Origin: an uncultured Bacilli bacterium
GTDB taxonomy: Bacteria; Bacillota_I; Bacilli_A; RF39; UBA660
DNA: 64,000 nucleotides
NCBI GenBank assembly: GCA_944363715.1
Contig: CALVUX010000003.1
Span: 8,155 to 72,154 of the forward strand
Direction: 5' to 3'
Both the position numbers and the translations under genes were made by a program. The notes beneath the pieces are model-generated. The model was given only the letters and a program-made list of their open reading frames with translations. It was not told the DNA's origin and searched no databases. This document shows positions 24,397-39,516 of this stretch, one piece after another; within the stretch, counting starts at the first letter, position 1, and each line of letters starts with the position of its first letter.

Positions 24397-24523
24397 GGGA
24401 GAAGATATTTTATTTTTTTCGTCTATAAGGAAATTGCGTTTTTTTGATATAAATCGAATTTTTGTATTGATGAACGTATATTTTATATAGTGCACTTAAG
24501 TTATAAGAAAGAGGTTTCGTCAT

Positions 24524-24736
24524 ATGAAAATATATAGAGCATATAAATTTAGATTATATCCAACAGAAGAACAGAAAATATTAATACATAAAACTTTTGG
24601 ATGTAGTCGTTTTGTTTATAATTATTATTTAAATTATCAAAGAGAAAAAGAAGTACAAAAAGCATTTAATAAAAGTCTATCAGATGCAAGTTTAAACATA
24701 TTATTAGAAGGATTAAAGTTACATTACAAAAGTTAA
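24524..24736 (+). pseudogene. tnpB: tnpB remnant (two internal deletions, 70 codons left)
   Basis: MKIYRAYKFRLYPT...FVYNYYLNY joined to KAFNKSLSDA joined to SLNILLEGLKLHY. Each piece is collinear with the 382-aa TnpB downstream. Confidence 0.8.
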
Positions 24737-24781
24737 ATAATGTCTGATATAATAAAAAAAACAAAGATAAATAGATTATTG

Positions 24782-24894
24782 AGTACGGTAGTGTTTTAAG
24801 GAATTTAAGCCTATGGAGAATAAGGGGTACCTTATCTATGAAGTAGGAATCCTTGGAGGTAACGACAAGGGTGAAATAAAATTTATTTTATTTC
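24782..24894 (+). ncRNA. Conserved right-end RNA scaffold (candidate omega/reRNA) of the deleted element
   Basis: agtacgg..ggaatttaagcctatggagaata..taggaatccttggaggtaacgacaagg is near-identical to 26240-26350. Ends in the perfect hairpin gaaataaaat/attttatttc. Confidence 0.5.
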
Positions 24895-25047
24895 TTATTT
24901 TCTTTAATACTAGTATTAATTTTGGTAAAAATTAAATATATTTTTATATAATAGGAAATTTATACTGAAAATCGAAAAAAAGTATTGACAAACATATTTT
25001 CTAGATAGTACACTTAAGTTACAAAAGTTAAGAGAGGTGTTCGGATT

Positions 25048-26196
25048 ATGAAGATATATAAAGCATATAAATTTAGGTTATATCCAACAAATGACCAAAG
25101 GGGATTTATTAATAGAACTTTAGGATGTAAACGTTTTGTATATAATTATTATCTTAATTATTTAAAGGATAATAATGGTATAAATAGATTTGATTTACAT
25201 AAAGATTTGCCTAAATTAAAAGAAGAAAATGAATTTCTAAAAGAAGTAGATTCAACTGTATTATGTTCTGCTGTAGATGATTTATGTAAAGCTTTTAATG
25301 ATTATTATGCTAAAAGAAAAGGTTATCCTAAATTTAAAAGTAAATTTAGTAAACAGTCATATAGAACTAGTTGTATAAGAAGCAGATATAAAGAAAAAGA
25401 ATATAGTAATATAGAGGTGGATTTATTAACTAAAAATATAAAATTACCTAAATTAGGTAAAGTCAAAATAAGAGGATATAGAGATAAAGATAAAATAAAT
25501 GGTAAAATATTAAATGCAACTATATCAAAAGAAACAACAAATAAGTATTATGTTAGTGTATTAGTAGAAGAAGATATCTTAATAGAGAAAGTAACACCTA
25601 CTACTATAGTAGGAATAGACTTAGGTATAAAAGATTTAGTAATAACAAGTGATGGTATTAAATATAGTAATCCGAAAGTATTAATGAAGTTTGAAAAGAG
25701 ATTAAAAAGATTACAAAGGAAATTATCTAGACAAGTTAAAGGTAGTAAAAACTATTTAAAGACAAAAGAGAAGATAGCGAGGATACACATTAAAATAAAG
25801 AATTATAGAAAACATTATTTAAACGATATAGCAAATGAAATAGTAGATGAACATGATATTATAGTAACAGAGAATCTACTAGTAAAAGATATGTTTAAAG
25901 ATAAGAGAAAAGCATTTAATAAAAGTCTATCAGATGCGTGTGTTAGTACATTTCTTTCTTTAATGGAGTGGAAATGTAAGATAAAAGGAAAGATTTATTA
26001 TAAAATAAATACCTATTATCCAAGTAGTCAGATATGTAGTCATTGTGGATATAAGAATAGCAAGTTAAAAGATTTAAGTATAAGAGAGTATGATTGTCCA
26101 GAATGCGGCTCACATAATGATAGAGATATAAATGCTAGTTTAAACATATTATTAGAAGGATTAAAGTTACATTATAATTTAGTTAGTTTAGTATAG
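25048..26196 (+). CDS. tnpB: TnpB (IS605 OrfB-family RNA-guided endonuclease-like protein)
   Basis: N-terminal YKAYKFRLYPTNDQ HTH block. RuvC-like IVGIDLGIKDL and IIVTENLLVKDM. Zn finger CSHCGY..CPECGSHNDRDINASLNI. Confidence 0.92.
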   Translation: MKIYKAYKFRLYPTNDQRGFINRTLGCKRFVYNYYLNYLKDNNGINRFDLHKDLPKLKEENEFLKEVDSTVLCSAVDDLCKAFNDYYAKRKGYPKFKSKFSKQSYRTSCIRSRYKEKEYSNIEVDLLTKNIKLPKLGKVKIRGYRDKDKINGKILNATISKETTNKYYVSVLVEEDILIEKVTPTTIVGIDLGIKDLVITSDGIKYSNPKVLMKFEKRLKRLQRKLSRQVKGSKNYLKTKEKIARIHIKIKNYRKHYLNDIANEIVDEHDIIVTENLLVKDMFKDKRKAFNKSLSDACVSTFLSLMEWKCKIKGKIYYKINTYYPSSQICSHCGYKNSKLKDLSIREYDCPECGSHNDRDINASLNILLEGLKLHYNLVSLV

Positions 26197-26239
26197 ATAA
26201 TGTTTTAGATAAAATAACAATTTAATAAAAAAATAAATT

Positions 26240-26350
26240 AGTACGGTGGCGACCATCGGAATTTAAGCCTATGGAGAATAGGGGTTACTCTATCTAAGAA
26301 ATAGGAATCCTTGGAGGTAACGACAAGGTGAAAACAAACTTGTTTGTTTT
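26240..26350 (+). ncRNA. Conserved right-end RNA scaffold (candidate omega/reRNA) of the full element
   Basis: Same core as 24782-24894. The terminal hairpin is aaaacaaac/gtttgtttt: different sequence, same structure (compensatory changes). Confidence 0.5.
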
Positions 26351-26360
26351 ATTTGTTCTA

Positions 26361-38741: not shown

Positions 38742-38770
38742 TTGACATCTTAAGATATTTAGTATATAAT
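38742..38770 (+). promoter_or_regulatory. Consensus sigma-A promoter driving the repeat array
   Basis: TTGACA (38742-38747), 17-nt spacer, TATAAT (38765-38770). Flanked by the 9-bp inverted repeat acttgatat/atatcaagt. Confidence 0.8.
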
Positions 38771-38781
38771 TAATATCAAGT

Positions 38782-38881
38782 AAATGTTCTCGCTTGTGGT
38801 TGGTGCGAGTAATAAATCATACCATTTTGTCAAATGTTCTCGCTTGTGGTTGGTGCGAGTAATAAATCATACCATATAGTA
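38782..38881 (+). ncRNA. Type III antitoxin RNA candidate: two abutting 50-nt direct repeats
   Basis: 38782-38831 and 38832-38881 are 47/50 identical (the first 44 nt are identical). Each unit has an internal CTCGC...GCGAG stem. Units begin with AAAU. Confidence 0.75.
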
Positions 38882-38887
38882 AATTAA

Positions 38888-38924
38888 AATTCCTTATTCT
38901 ATAATGAATAGGGAATTTTTTGTT
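38888..38924 (+). terminator. Rho-independent terminator between the repeats and the toxin gene
   Basis: aattccttattc / gaatagggaatt stem (one G-U pair) followed by tttttg. Confidence 0.7.
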
Positions 38925-39030
38925 TATAAGAAATTTATTAAATTTTAAAAAAATCGAATTTATGTATTGGCGAACATATTTTTAATGTAGTACACTTAAG
39001 TTACAAATATTAAGCAGAGGTGTTCGTCAT
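38925..39030 (+). promoter_or_regulatory. Solitary copy of the tnpB-element 5' leader/promoter module
   Basis: Aligns by eye with 24424-24523 and 24948-25047: tataag.aaattt...aaatcgaa...gtattgNNNaacatat...tagtacacttaagttacaa...gaggtgttcg..atgaa. Contains TTGGCG-18-TACACT (38967-38996). Confidence 0.65.
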
Positions 39031-39516
39031 ATGAAAATTAGAGAAGGATATGTTTACCATATTAAGGAAGAATATTTTAAAGATGTTAGAGATGAAAAAC
39101 TAATGAAAAATCACGAAGGTAATTTTACACGACCAAATTATTTTTGTATAAAACTAGATAATAGTGAAATATTGTGGTTTATTCCTATGAGTAGTAAAAT
39201 AGATAAATATGAGAAAATAATAGAAAAAAAGATAGAAAAATATAAAAAATGTGACACTATTGTAATCGGTAATTATAGAGGTAGAAAACACGCATTTTTA
39301 ATTCAAAATATGTTTCCTATAATTGCTAAATATATAGATCATATTGATACAGTTAACGGTAAAGCATTACAAGTACCATCCGAAACAAGACGTATAATAC
39401 TAGAAAAAGTAAATAAAGTATTTAAGTTAAAGAAAAAAGGTGTAAATTTGATTTTTCCTGATGTTGATAATATTAAAGGAATATTATTGAAAGAACTAAA
39501 AAAAGAAGAAAGTTAA
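39031..39516 (+). CDS. Type III toxin-antitoxin system toxin (ToxN/AbiQ/CptN-like endoribonuclease)
   Basis: 161 aa. N-terminal half (YHIKEEYFKDV....RPNYFCIKLDNSEILWFIPMSSK) matches the ToxN/AbiQ block (Y..YL..hD..V......RP.hGhhh.h....YhAPLSSPK) by eye. The promoter-repeats-terminator-ORF architecture is diagnostic. Confidence 0.7.
   Translation: MKIREGYVYHIKEEYFKDVRDEKLMKNHEGNFTRPNYFCIKLDNSEILWFIPMSSKIDKYEKIIEKKIEKYKKCDTIVIGNYRGRKHAFLIQNMFPIIAKYIDHIDTVNGKALQVPSETRRIILEKVNKVFKLKKKGVNLIFPDVDNIKGILLKELKKEES

Follow-up and report, generated by a model that had tools for sequence, protein, structure and literature searches.

The leader of a cptIN-family toxin gene as a probable remnant of a tnpB insertion sequence

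We conclude that the leader of a cptN toxin gene, at 38920-39030 of the window (the whole 64,000-nucleotide stretch of DNA analysed here, in which all features described lie on the forward strand), is probably the fossil left end of a tnpB-only insertion sequence (IS) of the IS200/IS605 family. The element would have inserted at the terminator that precedes the toxin gene and would later have lost its body by deletion. We give this reading a probability of about 0.7. The leader matches living copies of the IS from their terminal nucleotides to their start codon, and comparison with related loci indicates that the sequence moved from the IS to the toxin gene.

The toxin gene (39031..39516) encodes 161 aa and lies behind a predicted RNA antitoxin, cptI. 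A promoter scan placed the antitoxin promoter, P1, at 38742..38770 (TTGACA-17-TATAAT, 12/12 matches). It is followed by an array of two abutting 50-nt direct repeats that are 94% identical (38782..38881), which a direct-repeat search found and Tandem Repeats Finder missed, and then by an intrinsic terminator with a 14-pair stem, a 6-nt loop and a T-run (38886..38924, that is, 38886-38919 plus the T-run). Arrays homologous to these repeats lie 5' of about 65 related toxin genes. Against the NCBIfam CptIN model NF047359 the toxin scores 176.5 bits (cut-off 90), and a profile built from its relatives matches the CptN structure 4RMO with an E value of 1.8e-30; the Pfam model ToxN_toxin gives a weak match only. 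Its sequence assigns the locus to the cptIN family of type III toxin-antitoxin or abortive-infection systems, and the locus fits cptIN in all sequence-testable features but the spacing between terminator and toxin. Like cptIN (Blower et al., 2012, PMC3401426; 4RMO), it combines a CptN toxin with about two tandem repeats of about 50 nt, a terminator and a strong upstream promoter. Unlike cptIN, it has a gap of 106 nt before the toxin, outside the short norm of 25-45 nt seen in its relatives, and an IS left end that brings promoter-like hexamers and a ribosome-binding site occupies this gap. The usual spacing between type III components is about 1-50 bp, and a few longer gaps have been left unexplained (PMC3401426).

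The leader has three parts. The outer part (38920..38966), GTTTATAAGAAATTT...AAATCGAATTTATGTA, is collinear with the tip of living IS copies, (G/A)TCTATAAGGAAATTGCG...AAAATCGAATTTATGTA, and is decayed: a candidate left-end hairpin has lost its GCG/CG arms, and a candidate subterminal pairing, AAATTGCG...CGAATTT in living copies, is degraded. The core is a promoter-like module, P2 (38967..38996), consisting of a -35 hexamer TTGGCG (38967-38972), an 18-nt spacer and a -10 hexamer TACACT (38991-38996). It is followed by an IS-derived 5' untranslated region (38997..39030) with the Shine-Dalgarno sequence AGAGGTG at 39016-39022, which is of the same type as in the IS variants L164 and L177.

An earlier note on this DNA, made from the letters alone, had pointed to a leader common to the toxin gene and both tnpB copies in the window. 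Formal alignment and BLAST of the whole 1.40-Mb assembly agree. Positions 38915-39040 align upstream of all tnpB copies of the genome, nine sites in total (two each on contigs C3, C7 and C30, one each on C6, C13 and C39), with 73-83% identity over 84-126 nt and E values from 1e-9 to 1e-20. Smith-Waterman scores against these regions were 69-101, compared with 17.5-19.7 (sd 2.6-3.2) for dinucleotide shuffles; because 0 of 500 shuffles attained the observed scores, the similarity is far above the AT-rich background, which had been set beforehand as the test of the claim. The sequence blocks listed in the note as shared, the TTGGCG-18-TACACT pair, the Shine-Dalgarno sequence and the fusion at the start codon are all present in the alignment. 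Similarity sets in at about 38920, directly 3' of the terminator T-run, and ends after ATGAAAAT (39038). A search 3' of the toxin for a tnpB gene, a guide-RNA region or a right end matched only AT-rich noise, and the note was right that this is not a simple cargo-carrying IS. The leader is collinear with the left end of tnpB-only (IS1341-like) IS200/IS605 elements all the way from their terminal nucleotides to the start codon of tnpB, and like them it lies beside the preferred T-run target; unlike them, it is without tnpB, guide RNA and right end, and its outer part has decayed. By these features it is a solo left end, or remnant, and not an element.

Two copies of the IS lie in tandem in the window and served as references. 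The second (24948..26358; tnpB at 25048-26196) is a full tnpB-only IS200/IS605-family element that closes ...TTTATTTGTTC at its right end, and the window tnpB product, 382 aa long, passes TnpB models. The first (24418..24900) is a miniature deletion derivative; what is left of it is the left end, 41 codons of tnpB together with the 3' end of that gene, and the guide-RNA/right end. In alignments of independent copies, the left end opens (A/G)T(C/A)TATAAGGAAA or ATATAATAGGAAA directly behind a T-run and contains TTGAC(G/A)-18-TACACT, a 5' untranslated region and a Shine-Dalgarno sequence, and the right end consists of a guide-RNA scaffold and a terminal hairpin that closes ...TTATGTTCT or ...TTTGTTC. 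The joined flanks of the tandem (24418-26358), used as an empty-site query, confirmed the right-end boundary ...TTTGTTC; a clean empty site for this tandem was not obtained, its left intergenic flank being too diverged. Internal deletions are common in this IS (24418-24900, L022, L024 and L035). Most of tnpB is missing from these miniature derivatives, which have both ends, including the guide-RNA/right end, and resemble non-autonomous elements. We also compared right-end hairpins at 26300-26358 and 24860-24900 of the window and in the genome copies on C7, C6, C13 and C39. The terminal hairpin differs between two IS subfamilies in both arms (GAAATAAAAT/ATTTTATTTC versus AAAACAAAC/GTTTGTTTT), implying that the stem has been preserved by compensatory change. 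As for a helper transposase, the sole IS200-like tnpA in the genome (C12:8786-9145) has ends unrelated to those of the tnpB IS.

The position of the leader is also that of an IS left end. We collected 60 more tnpB left ends (L129-L188) from 36 genomes of the same genus; 54 have a recognisable tip, and 45 of these 54 lie at most 14 nt from a run of at least four Ts, many of them behind unrelated terminator-like hairpins. The two copies in the window show the same setting, at 24400-24425 and 24920-24950. The IS family therefore lands just 3' of intrinsic terminators, and the pattern suggests that it has a T-rich target or TAM and systematically favours sites where transcription units end. The toxin leader starts in this same left-end register behind the antitoxin terminator, whose T-run would be the point of insertion.

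The direction of transfer can be read from relatives of both partners. A toxin-profile scan of reference genomes gave 80 cptN loci, in gut MAGs labelled Clostridia, Lachnospiraceae, Bacilli and others, and almost all of them have the layout of repeats, terminator, a leader of 25-45 nt and ATG. The distance from the end of the repeats to the ATG is bimodal, at 43-76 nt versus 111-139 nt. The nearest toxins outside the genus, 75% (L040), 73% (L042 and L043) and 64% (L044) identical, are without the module. On the IS side, tnpB lineages that are 62% (G033) and 49% (G023) identical to the window tnpB retain both the tip (ATAAGGAAAG and AATAGGAAAG, respectively) and the -35 block (TTGACAAAC and TTGCAAAC). 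Short leaders in the outgroups and a left-end architecture kept in distant tnpB lineages together imply that the IS is the original home of the module, which is a derived feature of the toxin locus, so that on sequence grounds the transfer ran from IS to toxin, as the earlier note had proposed. The resemblance can be very close: the leader of the orthologous toxin gene in G019 is identical at 105 of 111 positions (95%) to a living IS left end in G016 (L164), ACAAATATTAAGCAGAGGTGTTCG included.

The junction itself lies in the start region of the gene. Outgroup toxin genes start ATGGAAAT or ATGCAAAT (in longer form ATGGAAATA or ATGCAAATT), tnpB genes start ATGAAAAT or ATGGAAAT (in longer form ATGAAAATA or ATGGAAATA), and the fused toxin gene starts ATGAAAATT. 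An ATGnAAAT microhomology, 7/8 nt, is common to the tnpB and toxin start regions, and the comparison places the crossover within it, the point of fusion between tnpB and toxin sequence lying at 39031-39038. Codon 2 of the toxin (Lys) probably comes from tnpB.

These observations suggest a simple history. A copy of this tnpB-only IS, which is abundant in the genus, would have inserted behind the terminator that parts the cptI repeats from cptN. A later deletion, which would have ended in the microhomology, would then have taken out tnpB and the guide-RNA/right end along with the short leader that the toxin originally had. The remnant would comprise an inward-facing promoter, a 5' untranslated region, a Shine-Dalgarno sequence and a start codon, probably with codon 2, all in frame with cptN. 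By this route the toxin would have gained a second, terminator-independent transcription start and a new translation start region. The output of P2 would add to read-through from the strong antitoxin promoter, with a presumed effect on toxin dosage and perhaps the uncoupling of the toxin:antitoxin ratio that the earlier note had raised. The proposed intermediate, a complete IS between antitoxin terminator and toxin, was not seen in any of about 100 toxin loci.

The arrangement extends well beyond this genome. All genomes compared were draft MAGs. Of the 36 other members of the genus that were searched, 26 have homologues of the toxin (27/37 including this genome), and sampling of 24 genera revealed none outside this one. 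The full-length module is present at the orthologous locus in G019, G020 and G032, with 90-93% nucleotide identity; because the same junctions occur in these three other independent assemblies, they are not an assembly artefact. The arrangement predates the divergence of the four species. A BLAST search of the genus with the module gave 91 hits, 52 of them upstream of tnpB, 15 upstream of toxin homologues and 24 in other contexts, mostly contig ends or deletion derivatives. A further form is found in 11 paralogous toxins (about 50% protein identity), which carry a 42-nt core only, 85-98% identical. The core also stands before a dinD homologue (NF008573, 348 bits) in two species (L030, G010:C52; L031, G029:C14) and before a recX homologue in one (L033, G004:C117). 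In both cases the gene lies directly 3' of a terminator, that of secA in the case of dinD, and the dinD gene of L031 is frameshifted or truncated. The description of the toxin copy as solitary thus stands for this genome, where it is the sole strong copy without tnpB behind it, but not for the genus, where the module precedes many toxin genes. Nor is it a one-off: at least three more species have it at the orthologous locus, and its core stands before other cptN clades, dinD and recX.

On the toxin tree, where leader classes were assigned by eye from leader alignments, long leaders turn up in a number of distinct clades, each of which sits among relatives with short leaders: that of the window, L006/L046, L066/L093/L095, L009-L012 with L019, the C18 type, and L071. 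The C18 type is found in this genome, outside the window, where C18:1-1500 (minus strand) holds two tandem cptIN loci. In the upstream one, the 5' half of the toxin gene has been deleted between short ttcta(t)aa repeats, a microhomology deletion. The downstream one is intact; its toxin is 47% identical, and its leader of about 95 nt is weakly similar to the IS left end (score 39 versus 20.8±3.3 for shuffles, 1 of 500 of which reached it).

The alternative that survives best, although we consider it unlikely, is homologous recombination or gene conversion, by which an IS left end or another toxin leader would have overwritten a leader that held an older core, with no fresh insertion and deletion. 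Recombination of this kind does occur. In G021 (C3:12400-16400, about 580-2170; L189), a promoter, two antitoxin repeats and a terminator are followed by the 5' part of a toxin-type leader, which passes within the core into an IS 5' untranslated region; an intact 378-aa tnpB and a right end come next, then dnaG, and there is no toxin. A crossover between the core of a toxin leader and that of the left end of an IS lying 3' of the toxin would yield such a locus, which shows that the module copies in IS and toxin leaders recombine. In addition, the spacer of this genome (G000), AACATATTTTTAATGTAG, has three changes of its own that match the toxin clade of L095 and not its own orthologues; the two cores are identical at 41 of 42 positions, and these spacer states suggest conversion from another toxin clade. 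TTGGCG also occurs in the diverged core of a relative that is 62% identical (L006/L046). Three long-leader toxin types have a common 3' leader, TTGGGGGTGT..., that is not IS-like, implying that some of the spread was probably recombination among paralogues and not fresh capture.

Nevertheless, conversion accounts less well for the leader as a whole. The IS match extends from the terminal tip by the T-run as far as the start codon and takes in the IS-type Shine-Dalgarno sequence. Conversion needs flanking homology, and the short-leader outgroups offer none. Moreover, the core-bearing relative falls, on the toxin tree, outside the clade that holds the short-leader toxins L040 and L043. We therefore prefer insertion followed by deletion.

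A broader interpretation, which we regard as doubtful, is that the left end is a portable, recombination-prone promoter cassette that has been wired to cptN several times and is able to swap toxin for tnpB behind the same array. If true, it would tie defence loci with RNA antitoxins functionally to the RNA-guided nucleases of transposons. One regulator might, for example, control both through the conserved 42-nt core, or insertion of the IS at toxin-antitoxin terminators might be favoured by selection, and the leaders would not be accidental scars.

We also considered that the block has been kept as a regulated promoter or operator, for example one responsive to DNA damage, that joins tnpB, cptN, dinD and recX, with IS descent secondary. 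The occurrence of the core before dinD and recX favours this idea, as do its high identity across toxin clades with so little protein identity and the presence within it of CGAACATATTTTTA, a 12/14 match to the candidate LexA box of the lexA gene itself, CGAACAGATGTTTA. We find it very improbable, however. The second half-site is without the conserved G, and many IS copies carry CAAAC instead of CGAAC. The recX gene of this genome has a different promoter, without a LexA box, implying that the recX case is a species-specific acquisition. The positions of dinD and recX directly behind terminators are, moreover, what random IS landings predict. A LexA/SOS operator in the module was accordingly rejected: only the left half-site, CGAAC, is there, and the GAAC-N4-GTTC palindrome is not. 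The candidate boxes of this genome, CGAACAGATGTTTA and CGAAGATTTGTTTG before lexA and TGAACTTTTGTTCG before recA (C1:39275-39400; C8:26550-26600), have both halves.

Hardly more credible is the reverse transfer that the earlier note had raised as its alternative, in which a leader native to the cptIN lineage was captured by an ancestor of the IS as its left end. The module is common to both contexts, and recombination could in principle go either way. Against this, seventy-odd cptN loci across Clostridia and Bacilli are without the module, the tip and the -35 block are kept in tnpB lineages down to 49% identity, and a tip beside a T-run is an insertion signature seen at dozens of unrelated sites; short-leader outgroups and an old left-end architecture thus count against the capture of a toxin leader by the IS. 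Finally, chance similarity between AT-rich sequences, or a chimera made at a repeat during assembly, which might be suspected in a metagenome-assembled draft of 27% G+C, can safely be set aside, since no shuffle attained the alignment scores, the junctions recur in three other assemblies, and an assembler would not be misled by local IS copies that are only 76-83% identical.

If the leader is an IS left end, as we favour, its promoter-like core may still act on the toxin gene. P2 has 8/12 hexamer matches and falls below the threshold of the promoter scan; the hexamers of the orthologues and of the IS have 9-10/12. The -35 hexamer is TTGACG in G019, G032 and the IS, a weakened TTGGCG here and TTAACG in G020, where the -10 is also changed, to TACATT. 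Indeed, orthologous toxin leaders (L002-L004, compared with window positions 38967-38996) differ chiefly in the promoter hexamers, and the 5' untranslated region (38 nt) is invariant in the four species. Hexamer positions and spacing are conserved across diverged module types, and a P2-type pair is the only plausible promoter for tnpB. Gene-flanking sequences in IS605 elements act as strong promoters (bioRxiv 10.64898/2026.09.24.754181). From the hexamer conservation, the want of any other plausible tnpB promoter, the analogy with IS605 and the invariant 5' untranslated region, we infer that P2 is active. Between species, the leader diverges faster (93-95% identity) than the coding sequence (96.5-97.5%) or the block of promoter, repeats and terminator (97-99%), a pattern that fits relaxed constraint and the tuning or attenuation of a harmful toxin's promoter equally.

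RNA pairing can shield transposase translation from read-through transcripts, as in the fold-back inhibition of IS10 and the stem-loop of IS200. The toxin leader resembles these systems in a 9-bp pairing of the -35 region with bases just 3' of the Shine-Dalgarno sequence, which is possible only in read-through RNA. It differs from them in that, over 32 left ends, pairing (64.9%) was not above that of shuffles and there was no covariation. Fold-back silencing of read-through transcripts is therefore not supported.

The earlier note had assumed that canonical type III toxins are expressed by read-through only, a premise that is doubtful for this branch. An extended -10 motif, TGnTAnnnT, is present a short way 3' of the terminator in 21 of 49 short-leader relatives, in 20 of them 17-28 nt before the ATG, compared with 7.4±2.6 in shuffles, although the test is a generous one because the 49 leaders are mutually related. 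The motif suggests that short-leader cptIN loci have a promoter close to the toxin even without the IS module. Its carriers in the Bacilli branch are L007, L008, L065, L075, L078, L080-L082, L085, L088, L090, L091, L094, L096, L097, L102, L109, L114 and L117.

IS-borne promoters that activate neighbouring genes, and solo-end remnants, are a general phenomenon (PMC9330008). The present case resembles these in that a transposon-derived promoter, whose activity we take to be likely, has been placed before a host gene. It differs in that the promoter is the inward-facing one of the transposon's own gene, exposed by deletion of the body, and not an outward-facing or hybrid promoter; in that the fusion reaches the start codon; and in its recurrence specifically at type III toxin genes. 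In the literature that we searched, there was no earlier description of a type III toxin gene joined to the left end of an IS605 element. Promoter donation by IS being well known, what is new is the in-frame fusion of promoter and translation start to a type III toxin, its recurrence at type III loci, made likely by the terminator preference of the IS, and the reciprocal swap of toxin for tnpB. Overall, this is a real yet fairly ordinary case of a transposon donating a promoter. Its practical value is modest, comprising a set of promoter variants (TTGACG, TTGGCG and TTAACG) and a caution for the annotation of type III loci.

Type III systems, cptIN included, are thought to set the ratio of toxin to antitoxin by one promoter and a leaky terminator (PMC3401426). 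Here, the toxin has received from an IS left end a second, putative promoter as well as a new ribosome-binding site, an arrangement that has outlived speciation. Because related toxins have similar modules or a short extended -10, the single-promoter model may not hold for this branch of cptIN. More generally, the data portray a lineage of the IS605 family whose members settle behind terminators, leave left ends on their own there and undergo recombination with these remnants. For tnpB elements this would be a simple way to rewire host genes, and the swap of toxin for tnpB in another species may exemplify such rewiring.
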